Shown here: piece by piece, positions 6,192 to 41,107 of the stretch
How positions within the stretch are numbered: the stretch's first letter is position 1
Layout of the letters: every line of letters starts with the position of its first letter
IMG/VR virus record: IMGVR_UViG_3300028886_000036
Span: 211,467-275,466 of that record
Length of the DNA: 64,000 bases
Source of the DNA: a virus
Taxonomy: Duplodnaviria > Caudoviricetes
Direction: 5' to 3' (one strand)
The notes under the pieces: model-generated
Seen by the model: only the letters and a program-made list of their open reading frames with translations
What the model was told of the DNA's origin: nothing
The model's database searches: none
Made by a program: the position numbers and the translations under genes

Positions 6192-6986
6192 CTACTTACA
6201 ATATTTTTCGCAGAACGCGTTGTATCCAGTCTCGTTGTTAGTGTATACGTCGATCTTGTGCTTCTCATCAGCACGATCTGTGTGGAACCCAGACGTATCA
6301 ACAAAAGTCGCAACGTCACTGGTGTGGAAAGCAATGAGCTTTGAACCCATGTCGATTCCAGCGAACCCGTTCTTTAACTTGATAACTGGATACTTCTTTA
6401 CAGAAGCATCCACTCTCGTGTCAAAGTACTTAACACCCTTTAGTGCTTTTGGCTCAGTCGGAATAAGCTTTTTTGCGTCCGGAGAATCAACAAGAATCGC
6501 CAAAGAACCTTTCTGATACATGTTAGGAAGCTTTATAAGCTTTTCCATACCCTCAAACGACGCTGACGAATAAACATACTCGTTTACGACATCGTTGATA
6601 AACTGGTACAGATGCTCTGTATCCGGTTCTTTAGGAAGCCTTTCGCCCTCCACCATCATCTTGGTAATGATATACCTTCCATTAGTGGGATTAAAACCAC
6701 CAATGCCAAGGATGTGATATACGGCTCCGTGGTGCGCCAGAGGAGCTTCTTTGGAGAAAAAGCTTCGAAGGATGCAGACGAACTTGAACTCCTGAAACAA
6801 CGCTCCATACGGCATGATGCACTCGGTAACGCGCTTCACCTTGAACTGCACTGCCTCCCCTGCAAAGACTTTAGTACTTAAAGTCTTTCCATCCGAGTCT
6901 TCGATTTCACACGACACGGGGAAGTCTTGGGTATAGATATACTTCACCCACCAATTGTTGCTGCGCTCGTTGTTATTGTCGGTCAT
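6192..6986 (-). CDS. hypothetical protein (cassette gene, visibly higher GC)
   Basis: AAGGAGGT SD before the ATG at 6986; promoter motif at 7045. Confidence 0.8.
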   Translation of the reverse strand: MTDNNNERSNNWWVKYIYTQDFPVSCEIEDSDGKTLSTKVFAGEAVQFKVKRVTECIMPYGALFQEFKFVCILRSFFSKEAPLAHHGAVYHILGIGGFNPTNGRYIITKMMVEGERLPKEPDTEHLYQFINDVVNEYVYSSASFEGMEKLIKLPNMYQKGSLAILVDSPDAKKLIPTEPKALKGVKYFDTRVDASVKKYPVIKLKNGFAGIDMGSKLIAFHTSDVATFVDTSGFHTDRADEKHKIDVYTNNETGYNAFCEKYCK

Positions 6987-12220: not shown

Positions 12221-12362
12221 AACAAAGACCTCCAAAAACAAGTTGTACATCTCTCAAGAGATGCTGTTACATTCCCTTTATATATTTATAAATGGCTAAA
12301 GACTAGCCAATGAAAAAGGCTGCCCAGAGATTGCTCTCCGGGGCTTACGCCTTTCAATGATA

Positions 12363-12569
12363 TTAATCGATATAGACCGCATCGCTAGGCGACGATGCGG
12401 TGAATTCAGCATGGTGCGGCATGCACCACTCAGCTTTCCCTGAGGCCAGGATCTTTTCCCTGGCCTGCTCTTCTGTCGCCGCGTGCGTGCGATAAAACTC
12501 GCACTCATGCGGAGACGGTCCACCAAAGAAATACCACTCGTTAAACTGCGCAAAGATATTTTGTTCCAT
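12363..12569 (-). CDS. small hypothetical protein (cassette gene)
   Basis: GGAGGTG SD before the ATG at 12569 (MEQNIF...). Confidence 0.7.
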   Translation of the reverse strand: MEQNIFAQFNEWYFFGGPSPHECEFYRTHAATEEQAREKILASGKAEWCMPHHAEFTASSPSDAVYID

Positions 12570-12574
12570 GTTGC

Positions 12575-12662
12575 ACCTCCACCTGCCCAAGATAAGACAG
12601 TGGGTTAACTGGGTTAACCTCTGTCGAACTACTCGAAAGTAGTTTCTCTGAAAGCAGATTCA
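12575..12662 (-). ncRNA. conserved structured 5' leader RNA, copy 1
   Basis: Near-identical to 31137-31223, with a compensatory base-pair change. Confidence 0.7.
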
Positions 12663-12696
12663 TTCGCATTATATATATACAACTTAAAATTGATAG

Positions 12697-12760: not shown

Positions 12761-14122
12761 TTGCCCTTAAGATGGTCTGAAGAAGAACATGACATTATTA
12801 GATTTATTAATTCTTATAACAACGAAGTAGTCAATAGCGGTTACAAAGAGATGAGATATACAGCGGATGATGTATATGAAATATGGAATAATTATCTATC
12901 AGATAACTACAGGGGGTTTGAATCTGTGAAACATAAAATGAGAGAGGTGGATTCATTTAGTTTGAATGACAGTATAATTAAATTTTTGAGTGGTAGTAAT
13001 TCACTTACTATTATGGATCTTATGGAGTATTATCATATATTTGATTTTATGGCTGAGAAATGCCTAGAATACTATGAACAAAAATTTATGAAAAGATTTT
13101 ATGATAGAAACACTGATGAAATCTTTACAAAAGAGCTTAAAGAGACTATTATAGAGAATCCTATTGTAGATCATAAGATTAAAATAGATACTGGTAATAC
13201 TCCAGTTTTGGTTAAACCAGAGCCTGATACTATTAAATCAGATGTTCCAGTTTCTAGTAAAAAAATTGAATCATTAGATATACCAGAAGCACCAGTTAAA
13301 AAGAAGGGTAAAAACTCATTAAAGAAGATTACTAAAAAGAGTAAGTATAAGACTTTAGCTGATGTAGAACAAGAATCAGTTGAAGATATTCCTGAAGAAC
13401 CATTTGCTGCTTTGAAAGAAATAGTTAATAGTTATAAGGTGCATATTAAAATTGGAATTATTGGAGATACTCATATTGGTAATATCTTTTGTGATGAGAA
13501 TACTCTTAACAGTTTTTATAAGAGATGTAATGATCTCGGTATCAAATACATCATTCACGCTGGTGATCTTGTAGATGGTCATAATATGTATAATGGCCAG
13601 GTTAAAGAGCAGAATCTTCACGGATTTGAAGAGCAAGTAAAGTATGTAATCTCTAATTATCCCAAATATGATGGACTTGTAACCTATGTAATTTCTGGTA
13701 ATCACGATATGTGTTATTTTAATAATACGACTTTACATCCTCTAGTTACTATTAGTAGATCTAGACCAGATATCATTTATGCTAGTGACTATTATGCTAA
13801 TATTGATATTGATGGTATTAAGATTACAATGATTCATACTGATGGTAACAGTGGATCTGAACCAATGACTAAACTAAAGAAGCTTATCAATAATAGAACT
13901 GAACCGTGTGATGTTATGGTGATGGGCCATTTACATCAGTCTATGGAATTGAGAGATTATTGTGGAGTAGCATATGCATGTGCTCCTGGGTCTTTCTTAA
14001 AGCCTAATTCATATACTATTAGAAGAGGATTCAACTGTACTCTTGGTGGATATATTCTTGATATTGAAAAGAATCTTTCCACTAATAAACTTATAGTTAC
14101 ATCTACTTGGATCAGTGAATAA
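12761..14122 (+). CDS. calcineurin-like metallophosphoesterase with N-terminal extension
   Basis: GDTH, AGDLVDG, GNHD, MIH and GHLH motifs. Confidence 0.9.
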   Translation: MPLRWSEEEHDIIRFINSYNNEVVNSGYKEMRYTADDVYEIWNNYLSDNYRGFESVKHKMREVDSFSLNDSIIKFLSGSNSLTIMDLMEYYHIFDFMAEKCLEYYEQKFMKRFYDRNTDEIFTKELKETIIENPIVDHKIKIDTGNTPVLVKPEPDTIKSDVPVSSKKIESLDIPEAPVKKKGKNSLKKITKKSKYKTLADVEQESVEDIPEEPFAALKEIVNSYKVHIKIGIIGDTHIGNIFCDENTLNSFYKRCNDLGIKYIIHAGDLVDGHNMYNGQVKEQNLHGFEEQVKYVISNYPKYDGLVTYVISGNHDMCYFNNTTLHPLVTISRSRPDIIYASDYYANIDIDGIKITMIHTDGNSGSEPMTKLKKLINNRTEPCDVMVMGHLHQSMELRDYCGVAYACAPGSFLKPNSYTIRRGFNCTLGGYILDIEKNLSTNKLIVTSTWISE

Positions 14123-14137
14123 TAAAAAGAAGGAGGG

Positions 14138-14533
14138 TTATGCCCTCCTCCCTCTTATGAATTCTACCCTAAACATGTGCCCATCACGCATGGTGAAATC
14201 TCCGCCAATCAGAACGCTATACTGTTTGCCACCATTAATCTCTAAGAATACTTCACAGAGATTAACGAAGAACCCTTCGATAGTAACTTTAACTCCGTTG
14301 GGAAGGACTTCTTCATGACGTTTTCCGCGTGGGATGCTAATCGGAAAGAGTTCCCCATCAAAATTGATAACGACACCACGCCCTTTTAAAAGAGATGAAG
14401 CCTCATTTTCAAGAAGAGGGAGGCGAAAATGTGAGGGTTTATAATTTCTCGGTGAATAGCTTCCCTCTCTGCCTCCAACAGTAGTGTAGCTACCATTACG
14501 GATGGAAATAATTACCTGCTGACCTATTGACAT
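14138..14533 (-). CDS. hypothetical protein (cassette gene)
   Basis: AAGGAGGT SD; promoter motif at 14574. Confidence 0.75.
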   Translation of the reverse strand: MSIGQQVIISIRNGSYTTVGGREGSYSPRNYKPSHFRLPLLENEASSLLKGRGVVINFDGELFPISIPRGKRHEEVLPNGVKVTIEGFFVNLCEVFLEINGGKQYSVLIGGDFTMRDGHMFRVEFIRGRRA

Positions 14534-29697: not shown

Positions 29698-29745
29698 GAG
29701 AATAAAATAAAAAGGCCGCGATGTAGCTGCGGCCTTTTTCCATTT

Positions 29746-30402
29746 TTACTCCTTAATAATCAACTTCCCGATTGCTGATTCTCCGCGAAACATAGTACGG
29801 AATGTCCGAGACAGAATTCCATAATTTCCGCACTCATTCGTGTCTGGAAACACTGACCAGCAGAATCCTGGAACATCCAATTTTAAGTCTTTAGAGTGAT
29901 CATCAAGACGGAATACCTTTGAGACCTGTGTATAGGTATCCTTTTCTGGAACCCATGTCTCCACGGAAGTTCTCGGGCACCACAGATTGGAGGCATCGTA
30001 TTCCTCCTCCGTTTCGTAATGCCCTTTGATCGTTCCTGTCTTTACTTTCCGACCATACGTGACGTATACTCCGCTATTTGGGCCGATCTTGATTTCGACC
30101 CCCAAAAATAGTCCGTTCCTTTCAATGCAATATGGTTCGTATAACGGGAGCGGTTTAACGTCGGGCCATACCGCGCCATCTCGTAATGTGACTGGAATGT
30201 CCGGGATTTCCACCCGGAATTCCTCCGGGGCCATGAATCGCCCCAGTGTCTCCCAGTATGGCGCAGATACTGCATCACCCAGTATTTCTTCAAACGGATA
30301 AAACTTAAAGTATTTCACTATCATTGTGGCTTTCATTTTGTCATCCTCCGAGGGCAGTTGCCCAAAAACGCAGAGCCAGTTGTTAAGAGGATCTAGGATC
30401 AC
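29746..30402 (-). CDS. hypothetical protein (higher-GC cassette gene)
   Basis: Promoter motif at 30453; terminator at about 29709-29739. Confidence 0.75.
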   Translation of the reverse strand: MILDPLNNWLCVFGQLPSEDDKMKATMIVKYFKFYPFEEILGDAVSAPYWETLGRFMAPEEFRVEIPDIPVTLRDGAVWPDVKPLPLYEPYCIERNGLFLGVEIKIGPNSGVYVTYGRKVKTGTIKGHYETEEEYDASNLWCPRTSVETWVPEKDTYTQVSKVFRLDDHSKDLKLDVPGFCWSVFPDTNECGNYGILSRTFRTMFRGESAIGKLIIKE

Positions 30403-30522
30403 TCTCCAAACCTAGCTGATGGACATTGATTATATGTCCTGTCACTGCCCTAATATATATACAAATGAAAATAGAAAAATAAATAAAAAGAAGACCTAAA
30501 TAGTATAGGTCTTCTTTTAATC

Positions 30523-30825
30523 TTATAACCAAAGAGTAAATTCTAAGTCATCTAACCTATAGATAATTTTACCTCTAGTTTGTGCTCCCTTTATCTTTTT
30601 TAGTTCAGTTTCTTCTTTTACTACGACATTATACTTTCCAGATATTTCTTCTTTAATCAGATCAGCATTAATTATAGACATATGGAAAGTACGATAATAC
30701 CATACTTTTATATACTTGTTTTCATCTTCAAGACAAAATAATGTAAACCAATCTTTATATTTACCACATATAACTGGAATTTCGTGCATATGTCGATTAC
30801 CCTGAGTTAACCCTAAACAACTCAT
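30523..30825 (-). CDS. hypothetical protein (cassette gene)
   Basis: GGAGGTG SD before the ATG at 30825; motif at 30862. Confidence 0.7.
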   Translation of the reverse strand: MSCLGLTQGNRHMHEIPVICGKYKDWFTLFCLEDENKYIKVWYYRTFHMSIINADLIKEEISGKYNVVVKEETELKKIKGAQTRGKIIYRLDDLEFTLWL

Positions 30826-30936
30826 AACAAACACCTCCAAAGAGATTAAGATACTTTCATTATATACTTATGAATAAAGCATAGACTAAATAAAAAGAAG
30901 ACCCTAAACTTCAGGGCCTTCTTTTTAATATTATAG

Positions 30937-31131
30937 TTACTTCTCGTTCTTAACGCGTTCGATACGTAAGCCTTTCAAGCAATCCCACAATTTCGGGGAA
31001 TACTCTGATTTATAGCTACTTACGAAAATAGCGTGCCGGATGCAATATATGATTGCTTCCGGCACCCGAAACAATCCGCAGCCAACAACGTGTGCTGCGG
31101 ACAACCCGCAATCGATACTAACGTTAAACAT
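30937..31131 (-). CDS. small hypothetical protein (cassette gene)
   Basis: GGAGGT SD before the ATG at 31131 (MFNVSID...). Confidence 0.65.
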   Translation of the reverse strand: MFNVSIDCGLSAAHVVGCGLFRVPEAIIYCIRHAIFVSSYKSEYSPKLWDCLKGLRIERVKNEK

Positions 31132-31136
31132 CGTAT

Positions 31137-31223
31137 ACCTCCACCTGCCCGAGATAAGACAGTGGGTTAACCAGGTTAACCTCTGTCGAACTGCGTTTTG
31201 CAGTTTCTCTGAAAGCAGATTCA
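31137..31223 (-). ncRNA. conserved structured 5' leader RNA, copy 2
   Basis: Homologous to 12575-12662. Confidence 0.7.
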
Positions 31224-31276
31224 CTGTCCTAATATATATACAAACAGAAATTGGTTATAGAACCAATAATAAAAAC

Positions 31277-31343
31277 TTGATCAGATCAGATTCGAACTGA
31301 TGACCTTCACTAATGTGATACTCTACCTCTGAGCTACTGATCA
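31277..31343 (-). ncRNA. tRNA-like RNA (67 nt) with a truncated anticodon arm
   Basis: TGATCAG TA GCTC AGAGGTA GAGT A TCAC ATTA GTGA AGGTC ATCAG TTCGAAT CTGAT CTGATCA A. Confidence 0.8.
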
Positions 31344-31449
31344 CCCTCTCGGGAAAATATATAAAACTTAAATACGCTCTTTTAATATACATATAAACAA
31401 GAATTAAAAAGAAAACTCCTAGGTGTGTGCTAGGAGTTATAAATTGTTA

Positions 31450-31941
31450 TTATTTAATGAAGTCTTGTAAAGTAAAAGCTTTGGTATCAAGCTTTTCTTT
31501 GACAATCTTTTCTTCTTTTTCCTTTTCAAGACGAATTTGCTTTTTCATGAATCTGGCAATATCTTCTTCAGACTCAATATCATTAATAGACATATCTTTA
31601 GGATTATATTTCTCAATGGTTACATCCATATTAGGAAGTGCTATGAATGACCACCATTCAGATCCATCATACTCGGATCTTTTGAGATATGACTGGTCAT
31701 TAAATACTACTTGGCATCCAAGCCATACTACTTCGCATCCATAACCGTTGTAATAGTTAAAGTCTGAAGATATCCTTTCAAAATCTTCCCAAGAAACAGC
31801 TGTGGAAGGATCTTTATGAAAGAATTCTTTTTCCTTATTTTTAACTACCACATGATGCACGTCCTTAGGAGAATGCCCACTCTTTTCAATTGCTTGAATA
31901 GTTTCTTCAAGCAAATTGATGTTAGGCTTGTCATATGACAC
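31450..31941 (-). CDS. hypothetical phage protein (cassette gene)
   Basis: GGAGGTG SD; YNGYG...RSEYDGSEWW motif; promoter motif at 32017. Confidence 0.75.
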   Translation of the reverse strand: MSYDKPNINLLEETIQAIEKSGHSPKDVHHVVVKNKEKEFFHKDPSTAVSWEDFERISSDFNYYNGYGCEVVWLGCQVVFNDQSYLKRSEYDGSEWWSFIALPNMDVTIEKYNPKDMSINDIESEEDIARFMKKQIRLEKEKEEKIVKEKLDTKAFTLQDFIK

Positions 31942-32040
31942 ACTAACACCTCCAACAAAAGATATTTATTTTGAACTACTCTATTCACACACAAAAGAGT
32001 AGTAGATACTTAGTTAATATATTTATGAAAGACAGAGCAA

Positions 32041-32298
32041 AAAGAAACCTATGCCTAATGTTACAGCATAGTAAAGAAAACATATAGTTTTCTTTTCCGT
32101 GAAGGTTTCTATCTCCTATCCTTATAAGGACGGGCGCTTAGTCTCTGATACACCAAACGGGGTGAGTGTATCTTCACTTAAGCACCTACCTTATAGAGCA
32201 GGTTAGGAGATCCAACACGATACGCAGCTCAGCTAGCTTGCGCCTGAATCGGCAAGCTCAGAACTGAGTTACGCAGCCCCAGATTACTCATAGGACAC
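32041..32298 (-). ncRNA. candidate ~255-nt structured non-coding RNA
   Basis: Own promoter motif (32306); no ORF in the track; three long stem domains whose G-U pairs work only on the minus strand. Confidence 0.65.
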
Positions 32299-32390
32299 TC
32301 GTATAATATATATACAACCTGAATTAAGTTTTATACATTAGATAACAAAAAGAAACCCCACAGTCATCACGACGTTGGGTTTCTTTTATT

Positions 32391-32936
32391 TTAGCAAACT
32401 TTTACCTCCTTCTTTCTGGCGATCTTGCATGCCAGAGAACACCCCCAAAACAACATAAGGGCCACAGTAAGAAGTGTAGGTCTAATACTATTAACAGTCG
32501 CCCCAGTATATAACCACGTTGGGATTACTGACGCCAGAATATTCCAACTGCTGTGATTAATGTACCAGAAAACTTTCATACGCTTATTGCTATAATGGTA
32601 ATAGCACAACCCAGATGCCGCGTGAAGCAGCATCATTGGCAGTCTAAATACCATAAACAACCCGACTCCAAACCACGCGATCTGGTAGGAGTAGAGAAAA
32701 GCCTCGAAGAAAGCATAAACTACCGCTTCTTTCTTGCTGCTGCAGTGCCTCATCTTAAAGGATTCTTCTAACCATGGAACCCAAAGGCACATCACTACGG
32801 ATGTTACAATTCCAAACGCACTCATTGCTACGTAATAATGATTATTGATGCTATATACGCAGCCCCCTACAGCAACCCCCGCTACGATCAACGGCTTCCA
32901 CATGGTGCAAATGAAATCTTTGAGATACTGTTTCAT
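32391..32936 (-). CDS. multi-pass membrane protein (cassette gene)
   Basis: AGGAGG SD before the ATG at 32936; several hydrophobic segments. Confidence 0.75.
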   Translation of the reverse strand: MKQYLKDFICTMWKPLIVAGVAVGGCVYSINNHYYVAMSAFGIVTSVVMCLWVPWLEESFKMRHCSSKKEAVVYAFFEAFLYSYQIAWFGVGLFMVFRLPMMLLHAASGLCYYHYSNKRMKVFWYINHSSWNILASVIPTWLYTGATVNSIRPTLLTVALMLFWGCSLACKIARKKEVKVC

Positions 32937-33163
32937 AGTATCCCTCCTACTCCACCTGAGCAAATGCCAGGCCGACCCACTGGTCTGCACCTTGGCTAGA
33001 CACCGACCGATTCGGTGTGCTCTAATAGTAGAGTCACTTGCGTAATATATATACAACTAAAATTAAGTTCTAGCAAAAAGAAAAGTTCATTTCGTATACA
33101 GATAATAATTATTTTTGAACTATTCTTTTTTATTTCAGTCAAACATCCCTTAATTTAAATTAA

Positions 33164-33397
33164 CTACTTTTCATCTGGATATAATTCACCAGCTACAAAT
33201 ACTACAGTTTGATATCCAGTACTATTGATAACTATAAATGATCTGCCATCAAAAGTATAAGGATATCCACTATTAGAACTATCACTAACAGTATTGTTAT
33301 GTCTGTTATCATCTTTGTTCACCTTATAAAAGATGGTATCTCTGTAACTACTCATCTTCTTCATCCTCTTCAGGAGAACAAATCGTGATAGCTCCAA
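33164..33397 (-). CDS. small hypothetical protein
   Basis: Coupled downstream of 33348-33653; the true start is probably internal (MSSYRD). Confidence 0.55.
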   Translation of the reverse strand: MELSRFVLLKRMKKMSSYRDTIFYKVNKDDNRHNNTVSDSSNSGYPYTFDGRSFIVINSTGYQTVVFVAGELYPDEK

Positions 33398-33653
33398 TTG
33401 AATCTAATGGGACTATGTACTTATCATTTTCCATTATAAAGTCTTCATCAGACTCATCTGGAAAATAGATATTGATCTCAAGATGAAGTTCACCAATTAA
33501 ATTAGTGATAACTTCTCTCTTGGTATACATACCCATTTTCTTTAATTCAGAGTATTCATCTTTAGAAAGCCTTATAATGCTTTCTTTCTGATGATTGCTC
33601 TCAATCAAAAACCTATTGTCCGCAAAGTTGTAGTAGTTGTAATTATAGTCCAT
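33348..33653 (-). CDS. hypothetical acidic protein (cassette gene)
   Basis: GAGGAGGT SD; long structured leader. Confidence 0.7.
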   Translation of the reverse strand: MDYNYNYYNFADNRFLIESNHQKESIIRLSKDEYSELKKMGMYTKREVITNLIGELHLEINIYFPDESDEDFIMENDKYIVPLDSIGAITICSPEEDEEDE

Positions 33654-33874
33654 TACAATCTACCTCCTCATATCGTACTCTCCTTTCAAAAGAGTAATAA
33701 AGTGTATAGTCTAATCTAAACGAAAAGACTTTTCTGAATGACTCAAACAAGCACTATTACTTGCTTGAATAAATCAGTGGATTAGACTGACTTACACTTA
33801 TGAAATATATATGTATGTGAGAAGTTAATAAAAAATATAGTGGGCGCATAGACTCCCACTATATTTCTGTAAAA

Positions 33875-34348
33875 CTACTCGTCTACGATGTCACACAACT
33901 TATCATACATCATATCAAGTACTTCTAAATCCTTTTGAGCATTAACCATTTTTAAGATATCATTTCTCACTTCCTCTATTTTCTTATTCAATTCAGATTC
34001 TGTAAACCTATATCCGAGCAGATCTAATACTAAACATTTTTTCTCATCATTAAGCGCATACTGCCATAATACATACTTCCACTGATTAAACTTCACACAA
34101 TTCCAATGAGGCTCGTCATCAGCTGCCTCGATATAACTAAGCCTTGGAATATCGAACATATCCTTAAGTATTTCATTAGTTGATACACGAACACTTACAT
34201 CCTCTTTAGAGAAGTCCTTAATAAGTTCGGATGGTTTGTTATATACTCGAACATCTACACCCATCTTATCAAGAGCTTTCTTAACCTTCTCCCACGGTGT
34301 TTCGTAGAACATCTTCTTTTCCCACTCGCGCTTTACATAGTCATACAT
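33875..34348 (-). CDS. hypothetical protein (cassette gene)
   Basis: AAGGAGG SD; motif at 34411. Confidence 0.75.
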   Translation of the reverse strand: MYDYVKREWEKKMFYETPWEKVKKALDKMGVDVRVYNKPSELIKDFSKEDVSVRVSTNEILKDMFDIPRLSYIEAADDEPHWNCVKFNQWKYVLWQYALNDEKKCLVLDLLGYRFTESELNKKIEEVRNDILKMVNAQKDLEVLDMMYDKLCDIVDE

Positions 34349-34494
34349 TTTAAACCCTCCTTAGGGTAAAATAGATATTGTCTTCCTATAAAAGGTAAGA
34401 CAGTATAATTATATACATATAAAGAAGAGAACTTTTATTTAGAGGATTCTCTTTTATAAAGATTTAGTTCTATTGATTGCTTAATAAAAATAAA

Positions 34495-34520
34495 GAGCAG
34501 TTTTACGTCATGCTCAGGAC
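34495..34520 (-). repeat. 26-nt 3'-end element (pseudoknot-like), copy 1
   Basis: GTCCTGAGCATGACGTAAAACTGCTC; 25/26 identical to 36367-36392. Confidence 0.8.
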
Positions 34521-34527
34521 AGGCTGG

Positions 34528-34824
34528 TTACTTGATGATCTTCAGAACTTCGTCCGCGATTTCTTCTGGACAGTCCTTAACTCCCACGGCTTCTCTGAAT
34601 TCGCTCAAGATTTGGCGCAGGTTCTCTGGCAAATGCCCGAGTTTCTCAAGGTCGTTGTAAATCTTCACTACAGAGAAATTGAAAACTTTCTCACCAAGCG
34701 CCTTTAAGAGCTCTTCATAAAGAGGGTAGTTTAAAGACTTAACCCACATATTGTGGGTTGTCTCTGAAGCAGTTCCCTTCAGCTCTTTGTGGATTACCAA
34801 GTACCACGTATACTGAATTGTCAT
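34528..34824 (-). CDS. hypothetical protein (cassette gene)
   Basis: GGAGGTG SD; motif at 34879. Confidence 0.7.
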   Translation of the reverse strand: MTIQYTWYLVIHKELKGTASETTHNMWVKSLNYPLYEELLKALGEKVFNFSVVKIYNDLEKLGHLPENLRQILSEFREAVGVKDCPEEIADEVLKIIK

Positions 34825-34936
34825 TTTTATCCACCTCCACGGTTAAGGGATGACATACCCTTGTAAGATATTCTATTAATATATATACACCCAGAATTAA
34901 AAAAAAAGAGAACCCTCATATAGAGGATTCTCTTCT

Positions 34937-36366: not shown

Positions 36367-36392
36367 GAGCAGTTTAACGTCATGCTCAGGAC
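36367..36392 (-). repeat. 26-nt 3'-end element (pseudoknot-like), copy 2
   Basis: GTCCTGAGCATGACGTTAAACTGCTC. Confidence 0.8.
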
Positions 36393-36398
36393 AATTTC

Positions 36399-36611
36399 TT
36401 AATAGGTTTCTTCCTCCACAAGCCCCTTGAAGTACACTACTTGCTGTTCACCGTATGCATTCCAGCTAAACGAATGTTTCTTCTTAGCTTCGTCAAGAGT
36501 ATTGAATGGACCGGCGATAAACACATCAGCGCTTGGTGCGGACATACCATTCGCTGAGGATGTACCAACAACGCAATACCATTTACTGCATTCTTTTTTG
36601 CTTCCGAACAT
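36399..36611 (-). CDS. small hypothetical protein (cassette gene)
   Basis: AGGAGG SD before the ATG at 36611 (MFGSKK...). Confidence 0.7.
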   Translation of the reverse strand: MFGSKKECSKWYCVVGTSSANGMSAPSADVFIAGPFNTLDEAKKKHSFSWNAYGEQQVVYFKGLVEEETY

Positions 36612-37318: not shown

Positions 37319-37590
37319 GTCAATAACCTTATACATTATTGTATGAAGCCATGCTTCTTATTGACTACCCTAAGTCTGGTTTTACCAGGAAACTACGTTA
37401 TTGAAGAAAAGATAGGCACCTGCGAACGTTTGTCCTAATTTACAGCTCTGCGGCTAATGATTAAACGGTTCTGAAAGGTAGGGACAGTGTTATTAGCATA
37501 TAAAACCTTCAAATAACATTGGGTAAGGGCACCTAACTCTACTTTTGTAGAGAGTCACTTCTTTTGTTAGTGACTAAATTTTATGTAGTA
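37319..37590 (+). ncRNA. omega RNA (HEARO-type) of IscB
   Basis: Starts GTCAATAA...TTATTGAC stem, then ACTACGTTA, GGCACC, GCTCTGCG and AACATTGG elements typical of HEARO RNAs; lies directly upstream of iscB; 3' end approximate. Confidence 0.8.
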
Positions 37591-40052: not shown

Positions 40053-40801
40053 TGGATATACCTGAAAATATATGTAGTCAGACTATACATCAAGTAGAAA
40101 AACAATTCTTATCTAGAAGAGTTCCAATTAAGTTATTTAAACAGCTTATAACAGCATCTAAGGATCTAGATTTTACTAAGCTTAATGATCCAGTAATTAA
40201 GTCAAGATATATGGAATCTAGAAATAAGATTGAACCTTATTTTAGAAGAGTAATCCAGCAAGATGTTTATTCTAATTCAGAAGATAATAGATATGAAGAG
40301 TTTATAAACTTATTAATAACATTGTTCTCTATATTTGATGCAATCATAACTGGTAGATTGTATATTACAGATATTGCTCAGCAAGAAACCACAATAATAA
40401 ATGACTTCTTAGATTCATATGGGTTTATGATACATAGAATATTTGAGAATCAGGTTAAAGTAGATTTAGCCCAACATATCTATAGAAACATTAGATTAAA
40501 AGGAACTACTACTTTGCTTACTATTTTATTATCTAATATTGGGTTTAATGCATATCAAATAGATGAATATGAACTGAATTGTTTAGATGGTAAGTTTGTT
40601 TTAGTACCTCACACTACTTATAAGAGTCATGGAGCTAGCGGGCAAGAGTTAGAAAATAGTTATGCCTATGTAGAAGAATTAGATGATATACTGTGGACTG
40701 TTAGTGATGATGAATTAAGAACAATATTTAATCAATCGTTATCTATGTTACTTAAGGTTGATGAAAACCCTGAAGAAGAGGATCAAGAAGAAGAGCCTTA
40801 A
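40052..40801 (+). CDS. probable baseplate/tail protein (possibly an N-part)
   Basis: RLKGT motif reminiscent of baseplate wedge and tail proteins; acidic C-tail. Confidence 0.5.
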   Translation: MDIPENICSQTIHQVEKQFLSRRVPIKLFKQLITASKDLDFTKLNDPVIKSRYMESRNKIEPYFRRVIQQDVYSNSEDNRYEEFINLLITLFSIFDAIITGRLYITDIAQQETTIINDFLDSYGFMIHRIFENQVKVDLAQHIYRNIRLKGTTTLLTILLSNIGFNAYQIDEYELNCLDGKFVLVPHTTYKSHGASGQELENSYAYVEELDDILWTVSDDELRTIFNQSLSMLLKVDENPEEEDQEEEP

Positions 40802-40825
40802 TAAAAACAAAAGTAAAAGGGCCTT

Positions 40826-40984
40826 TTAGGCCCCGCACATTCCTGCGATGGTGCATCCAATTTCGACTGCGGTGAAGATTCCATCCGCGAGGTTGCGGAG
40901 GCCTTCGTTTTCAATCATCGGCAGAGTGTGGTTTTTGATGTGCGTGGTGATAGCTCCCGCAACGGTTGCGAAGCTGATTTTCAT
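40826..40984 (-). CDS. 52-aa peptide (cassette gene inside the structural operon)
   Basis: AAAGGAG SD before the ATG at 40984; motif at 41069; GC-richer than its flanks. Confidence 0.65.
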   Translation of the reverse strand: MKISFATVAGAITTHIKNHTLPMIENEGLRNLADGIFTAVEIGCTIAGMCGA

Positions 40985-41107
40985 ATCAGTCTCCTTTCTC
41001 CCAGATTTCAGGGCTCTGGGATCTAACCCGGCGCAGTGTCTTAATCCTTTCGCTGCTCCAACGCCAGTATATATATACAACTTAAAATAAGAGGGAGGTG
41101 AATCTAT

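Follow-up and report, generated by a model that had tools for sequence, protein, structure and literature searches.

Messenger RNAs can be stabilized from their 5' termini, as by the Bacillus subtilis aprE leader, ermC, the STAB-SD elements of phage SP82 and cryIIIA, and the 5' stem-loop of Escherichia coli ompA; these elements are single hairpins or Shine-Dalgarno (SD)-like sequences. Translational operators, which include the T4 gene 32 and regA sites, the MS2 coat-protein hairpin and the three-way-junction S15 leader of Geobacillus, have named binders. The promoter-early stem-loops (PeSLs) of T4-type phages, reportedly described by Arbiol et al. in 2010, are said to be mobile regulatory cassettes. 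Little is known of what becomes of the early genes of RNA polymerase (RNAP)-carrying jumbo phages after they have been transcribed. For phage AR9, one study (PMC5312081) gives an experimentally mapped early consensus of the virion RNAP, AAATATATATTAT-N6-G(+1), as well as untranslated regions (UTRs) of 26-491 nt and an uncharacterised motif in early 5' UTRs.

The DNA analysed here, referred to as the window, is a stretch of 64,000 nucleotides that forms the last 64 kb of a 275,466-bp IMG/VR virus record with a GC content of ~30%, whose DnaB-like helicase has Bacillus phages AR9 and PBS1 (32% identity), plus a Staphylococcus jumbo phage, as its nearest cultured relatives. An initial annotation of the window had proposed two near-identical minus-strand leaders, the second near 31137-31223, and both are located there: copy 1 spans 86 nt from the predicted +1 to GGAGG (12576-12661, minus strand), copy 2 spans 85 nt (31138-31222, minus strand), and the two, which we call type A, are 88% identical. 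They are the only type-A copies in the 275,466-bp genome by both BLAST (E 4e-45 and 3e-25) and a covariance model (108 and 105 bits). Like the Gram-positive stabilizers and ompA, type A places structure within a few nucleotides of a (predicted) 5' end and beside a strong SD, and it appears portable and independent of the downstream gene; unlike them, it is an 86-nt three-way junction that would occupy the entire UTR and has sequence-invariant arms. Like translational operators, it abuts the SD, has helices that are constrained in sequence and interrupted by a small internal loop, and is linked to a single gene; its loops, however, are unconserved, and it shows no Rfam similarity to any r-protein leader. 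As in PeSLs, promoter-plus-structure modules are repeated at small early ORFs and apparently drive modular shuffling, but the stem-loop of a PeSL is a terminator upstream of the promoter, whereas the type-A structure is a transcribed 5' UTR with pairing under selection. In phage type, in promoter motif and in the distance from that motif to a starting G, the system recalls early units of the AR9/phiKZ type (AAATATATATTAT-N6-G; PMC5312081), although there is no sequence match to AR9 or any cultured phage and the early units here, at 44-54% GC, stand out as GC-rich islands from a genome of 30% GC.

Minimum free energy (MFE) folding yields an identical three-way junction for each copy (z -2.0 and -2.9), with all of the stems named in the initial annotation, namely an outer stem abutting the SD, GACAG/CUGUC enclosing GGUUAAC/GUUAACC, and the hairpin given below as P2. 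The outer stem, P1, is an 8-bp helix, AUCUGCUU/GGGCAGGU, formed in copy 1 by 12652-12659 with 12581-12588 (this and the following pairings on the minus strand). It is followed by a 3-nt bulge; by P1b, an additional 4-bp helix beyond those first listed (GAGA/UCU(U/C), 12645-12648 with 12589-12592); by the 6-7-bp hairpin P2 (12639-12644 with 12627-12632); and by a hairpin in which the 5-bp P3 (GACAG/CUGUC, 12621-12625 with 12596-12600) encloses the 7-bp P4 (GGUUAAC/GUUAACC, 12613-12619 with 12603-12609), with a 1x2 internal loop between them. The junction leaves 0, 1 and 3 nt unpaired. P2 reads AACUAC/GUAGUU in copy 1 and AACUGC/GCAGUU in copy 2, which is the compensatory change originally reported between the copies, and the remaining differences, originally placed mostly in loops, consist of one G-U to G-C change and loop positions. 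Since P1 holds three U-G pairs, the fold exists on the transcribed strand only. Partition-function folds of the leader with 45 nt of coding sequence (CDS) form the junction in all five contexts, with nt 1-2 unpaired; in three of the five (W1, W2 and L052) the SD begins with bases that are mostly unpaired, and in related contigs L004 and L056 a predicted downstream hairpin covers part of the SD. By eye, these leader-plus-CDS folds contained no competing pairing of more than ~4-6 bp, and no start-codon hairpin was found consistently across orthologs. Two other readings of the DNA were ruled out. A coding function fails because the variants differ in the P2 loop by indels of 1 and 2 nt that change the reading frame, and because what look like GTG/ATG starts precede the predicted transcription start site (TSS); a plus-strand function fails because only the palindromic P3/P4 scores there (11-12 bits) and the G-U pairs become A-C mismatches.

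Both copies are preceded by TTGTATATATAT(T/A)A. The early-promoter motif of cassette 1, TTGTATATATATAA plus a 7-nt spacer (12662-12682, minus strand), gives a predicted +1 at the G at 12661, and that of cassette 2, TTGTATATATATTA plus a 7-nt spacer (31223-31243, minus strand), one at the G at 31222. About 15-19 occurrences of the motif lie ahead of SD-led ORFs in the genome, many of them in GC-rich islands, and no sigma-70-like promoter is present on the minus strand at the cassettes. Compared with the consensus in PMC5312081, an AR9-type arrangement (AT-rich motif ATATATATTA(T), 6-7-nt spacer, purine (G) start) is seen in the sequences of both copies, of the type-B leader described below and of ~15 other cassettes. 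If the AR9 spacing given there applies, +1 would be the G of GAAUCUGC and P1 would begin at +3. Similarity between the copies starts at this same G and stops at GGAGG; outside the leader, the 7 nt preceding it and the SD-AUG spacer differ. The 3' strand of P1 ends one nucleotide before GGAGG and, because P1 starts at the predicted +3, the fold probably fills the whole 5' UTR.

Copy 1 leads, through the SD GGAGGUG, into a GC-rich 68-aa ORF of no known family (P0001; 12363-12569, minus strand), which is found only in near-identical strains, two synonymous changes apart; its cassette ends in a terminator-like hairpin (12323-12342, minus strand). Copy 2 precedes a 64-aa ORF (P0002; 30937-31131, minus strand) with invariant C8, C18, C30, H33 and C51, a pattern that suggests metal binding, and this cassette ends in an intrinsic-terminator-like hairpin (30891-30927, minus strand). 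The two ORFs are unrelated, as first claimed (hhalign probability 0.14%). Codon-position identities of 53/64, 58/64 and 34/64 show that P0002 is coding. Its AlphaFold model (pLDDT 78) consists of a beta-hairpin, a long helix, a short helix and a strand; it has no PDB match (best Foldseek E 0.74) and resembles no known RNA-binding fold. Neither P0001 nor P0002 belongs to a Pfam or PHROG family, a P0002 profile search against 1.84 billion representatives returned its own cluster and a spurious ankyrin-repeat hit only, and an Atlas feature search with P0002 was empty; in the searches run, relatives of the two proteins came only from within this phage group. The cassettes that make up the GC-rich islands lie at window positions 29700-34900, 6300-6900, 12300-12600, 14100-14500 and 40800-41100, and every cassette carries a promoter motif and leader of its own, a strong SD, a small ORFan gene and a terminator.

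Several further features were noted. A tRNA-like gene at 31277-31343 (minus strand; Rfam 53.8 bits, not called by ARAGORN) has normal-looking acceptor, D and T arms and an anticodon arm that is merely UCAC-AUUA-GUGA; it is 97-100% conserved in relatives and always sits ~65 nt upstream of the type-A/P0002 cassette, and a PolyA_pol/CCA-adding-type enzyme is encoded nearby in relatives L051 and L056. At 32040-32296 (minus strand), an early-promoter cassette with its motif at ~32303-32317 has no ORF led by a ribosome-binding site (RBS), the longest ORF being 19 aa; its GC-rich RNA of ~250 nt (MFE -99.9 versus -68.3 kcal/mol for shuffles, z -6.35) ends in terminator-like hairpins, gave no Rfam match at E up to 5, and is, as modelled, a candidate phage early non-coding RNA. 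The window also contains a match to HEARO, the IscB-associated omega RNA (37319-37537, plus strand, 116 bits), and a ~37-nt repeat, GAGCAGTTT(T/A)ACGTCATGCTCAGGACA, at 34495-34531 and 36367-36403, downstream of two cassette genes. In relative L059, an OrfB_IS605/Cas12f-like TnpB gene lies near the cassette region.

Relatives of P0002 (67-82% identity) occur on metagenomic contigs drawn from ENA and Logan, to which further contigs were added via the neighbouring membrane-protein family. The leader is present with every P0002 ortholog that has upstream DNA (L003, L004/L005/L050, L048/L049 (partial), L052/L053, L054/L055, L056 and L059), and the 68-aa gene with its leader occurs in near-identical strains only (L006-L009). 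A search with covariance model R1 of five IMG/VR relatives whose helicases are 72% identical came back empty; among them is the complete 284-kb genome G003, which has neither the leader nor the P0002 gene; P0002 is absent from all three relatives tested for it (G003-G005). Sample labels of the related contigs (STEW19, XIEF21) would fit a rumen or ruminant-gut origin, and the known distribution of type A is narrow, being confined to one uncultured-phage clade in samples whose labels suggest the rumen.

Alignment A4 comprises eight distinct leader variants. All 30 base pairs are kept, with 236/236 pair cells being standard pairs; homologs that break the pairings, which had been named at the outset as the observation to look for against the fold, were thus absent among the eight variants. 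Double (compensatory) changes occur at five pairs, 15-72, 16-71 and 17-70 in P1b and 19-34 and 22-31 in P2, and two further pairs show one-sided changes from G-U to G-C or A-U. As controls, slid partners pair at 29-44% and 0/500 column shuffles reach the observed covariation score; unguided RNAalifold recovers the identical three-way junction from the alignment. P4 of L056 is shorter by one whole base pair, and the 1x2 internal loop (A42 versus C60-A61) is kept in all variants, including this divergent one. Between the window and L003 or L004, identity is 97-100% in the adjacent tRNA-like gene, 84-91% in the leader, 50-57% in the intergenic spacer, 14-57% in the promoter-to-TSS spacer and 34-53% at third codon positions; synonymous sites in these lineages are close to saturated. 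Double changes that arose in separate lineages, a leader much better conserved than its neutral flanks and minus-strand-only G-U pairs bear out the initial proposal of a selected cis-acting RNA, and by comparison across these homologs the type-A leader is real, selected and strand-specific.

The constraint is unevenly distributed over the fold. Variable columns number 13/20 in P1b and P2 versus 4/40 in P1, P3 and P4 (Fisher p = 2e-5), so P1b and P2 read as structural spacers constrained in their pairing only, and P1 and P3-P4 as constrained in sequence also. Both hairpin loops vary at every column, in sequence and length, and 9/12 junction and bulge positions are invariant, in a junction of just 4 unpaired nt with variable loops and a shallow phylogeny. 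Identical leaders stand ahead of diverged CDSs (L003, L054 and L006) and two P2 alleles are mosaically distributed, which indicates that recombination or gene conversion adds to the uniformity. The independent metagenomic contigs L008, L048 and L049 start at the same nucleotide inside the leader (AGTTCGACAGAGG...), as expected of assembly-graph breaks at a multi-copy repeat.

Type A is accompanied by other leaders of similar design. The type-B leader (32937-33035, minus strand), before a 181-aa membrane-protein gene (32391-32936), follows the layout of type A (an outer stem from the 5' end to the SD, an inner stem and internal hairpins) and has in common with it only the 5' GAnUCUnCUnUnAGAG and 3' CAGGUGGAG strings; it is the best non-self hit of model R1 (15.6 bits, E 0.09), and its ortholog in L056 keeps 24 pairs, two of them via compensatory changes. 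Orthologs of the membrane protein bear type B, a type C or another leader, depending on lineage. Because leader types differ across orthologs of one gene, the early cassettes, as judged from these alignments, are modular (promoter, structured leader, strong SD, small GC-rich ORF, terminator) with leaders swapped between ORFs, and the existence of other structured, covarying and exchanged families points to a generic role for such leaders. Type C consists of GUAAYAACCU, hairpin 1, AUCAUCGG, hairpin 2 and the SD, and is found at L052 5876-5947 and 7127-7198, L060 1533-1603 and L061 343-413; it precedes the membrane-protein family and an unrelated 59-aa gene (both in L052), and both of its hairpins appear to covary.

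No described family was found to match. The leader had not been recognised in the initial annotation, and the covariance search of Rfam 15 that it called for returned no family, with nothing at gathering thresholds and, once E was relaxed to 10, only a pair of opposite-strand hits at chance level. Exact and IUPAC pattern scans for the leader found nothing in IMG/VR or GTDB genomes, and among cultured phages a BLASTN search with the cassette matched none of 50,697 phage records. Separately, 29 JGI metagenome loci that matched the outer-stem pattern proved to be chance matches in unrelated GC-rich DNA. Type A is thus a previously undescribed, narrowly distributed family of structured leaders, of a known general kind.

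We tentatively favour, at somewhat short of an even chance, the reading that type A acts as a portable module of the 5' UTR, holding the 5' end in a clamp next to an exposed RBS and so providing mRNA protection and reliable translation. It would be the complete 5' leader of short monocistronic early mRNAs made by a phage virion-type RNAP. Transcripts would start at the G of GAAUCUGC, P1 would pair nt 3-10 with the eight nucleotides directly 5' of the GGAGG(UG) SD, and its closure would give a compact Y-shaped domain composed of P1-P1b, hairpin P2 and hairpin P3-P4. The ~2 unpaired nucleotides left at the 5' end would hinder 5'-end-dependent decay; the self-contained fold would prevent mispairing with the following CDS and leave a strong RBS exposed at the foot of the helix, the outcome being stable, context-independent early expression. 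The module would belong to the 64-aa P0002 cassette and would have been copied before the second, unrelated 68-aa gene. Consistent with this scheme, the bounds of similarity match the predicted +1 and the SD, the promoter fits the AR9 early consensus with its TSS 6-7 nt downstream (as mapped in PMC5312081) in a phage whose helicase is nearest those of AR9 and PBS1, and both cassettes end in terminator hairpins. Independence from the CDS, at the level of architecture, is seen in the use of one leader before unrelated ORFs and in autonomous folding in five contexts. Against the module, a simple 5' hairpin would suffice for protection, the near-invariance of P1, P3 and P4 is left unexplained, type A stays with a single gene family in all lineages recovered, and the SD is partly covered by the predicted hairpin in L004 and L056. 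Furthermore, a crude test of 19 predicted early transcripts genome-wide found 5'-flush structure in 68%, versus 55% in shuffles and 52% in shifted windows, with no significant excess.

The near-invariance of P1 and P3-P4 suggests, as far as conservation can tell, that something also recognises the type-A RNA, and the main rival to the module is accordingly an operator for a trans-acting RNA-binding factor, either a phage early or middle protein, possibly P0002, or a host protein. Such a factor would read the invariant P3-internal loop-P4 arm and/or P1 by the SD and turn the translation or the degradation of the P0001 and P0002 mRNAs on or off as infection proceeds, so that the two genes would form a small post-transcriptional regulon; we regard this as a serious but doubtful possibility. 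It would account for sequence constraint in P1, P3, P4 and most junction and bulge nucleotides next to pairing-only constraint in P1b and P2, for retention of the 1x2 internal loop A42/C60-A61 even in L056, and for the way the leader tracks the P0002 family in every recovered lineage, G003 being without both; P1, abutting the SD, is also well positioned for a repressor. However, P0002 is a candidate only, its model being unlike known RNA-binding folds (Foldseek E 0.74), the two hairpin loops, where proteins often make contact, differ among variants in both sequence and length, and the identical leaders on diverged CDSs (L003, L054 and L006) may reflect recent recombination instead of selection for specific sequence. 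The more specific form, a dedicated operator through which a phage or host factor, perhaps P0002, times or shuts off an early mini-regulon of the virion RNAP, seems unlikely, though not strikingly so. Recombination enters in another way if the promoter-leader block is a DNA-level homology patch that shuffles cassettes, comparable to T4 promoter-early stem-loops, with the RNA fold incidental. The exchange of leaders between orthologous ORFs, the mosaic P2 alleles and the three metagenomic contigs that break at one point inside the leader, as a repeat would, are in line with such a patch; nonetheless, compensatory changes, one-strand G-U pairs and zero broken pairs amount to selection on the RNA fold, and the homology ends at the +1 and the SD, which are RNA boundaries, making an incidental fold decidedly improbable.

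Two further explanations assign the fold a different task. As a processing or decay signal, type A would present the P1-P1b-P2 coaxial stack (~18 bp) or the P3-P4 arm to a double-strand- or structure-specific RNase, whose cut would either mature read-through from the upstream tRNA-like gene or time the turnover of early mRNAs, as happens at the RNase III sites of T7 early RNA. The long, nearly continuous helices and the conserved tRNA-like gene ~65 nt upstream in every P0002 context would suit this role, which we nevertheless consider improbable: copy 1 has no upstream tRNA-like gene, each copy has its own promoter that sets the 5' end at the base of P1, and the helices contain interruptions and fall short of the usual length of RNase III substrates. 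The riboswitch-like option raised in the initial annotation, in which a riboswitch or RNA thermometer senses a metabolite, ion or temperature and gates translation, is disfavoured and appears very improbable despite the conserved structured 5' UTR directly upstream of the SD and some invariant junction nucleotides. With just 0, 1 and 3 unpaired nt the junction is tight, the variable loops make a loop-loop tertiary contact unlikely, and in every variant the SD is located 3' of P1 and outside the fold, with no alternative SD-hiding fold seen; moreover, Rfam yielded no match even when E was relaxed to 10, the genes that follow the leader are ORFans sharing no metabolic theme, and the distribution is very narrow.

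The finding provides a covariation-supported RNA motif that, given the predicted start, fills an entire early 5' UTR, together with several exchangeable leader families on GC-rich, self-contained early cassettes, and the clean split between pairing-only and sequence-constrained arms points to informative mutants. Should type A prove to be a stabilizer or insulator, it would serve as a compact and portable part for expression. Were it instead an operator, it would constitute a new regulatory circuit and the first defined RNA-level control of early genes in AR9-like jumbo phages, set within a wider system of interchangeable structured leader families.
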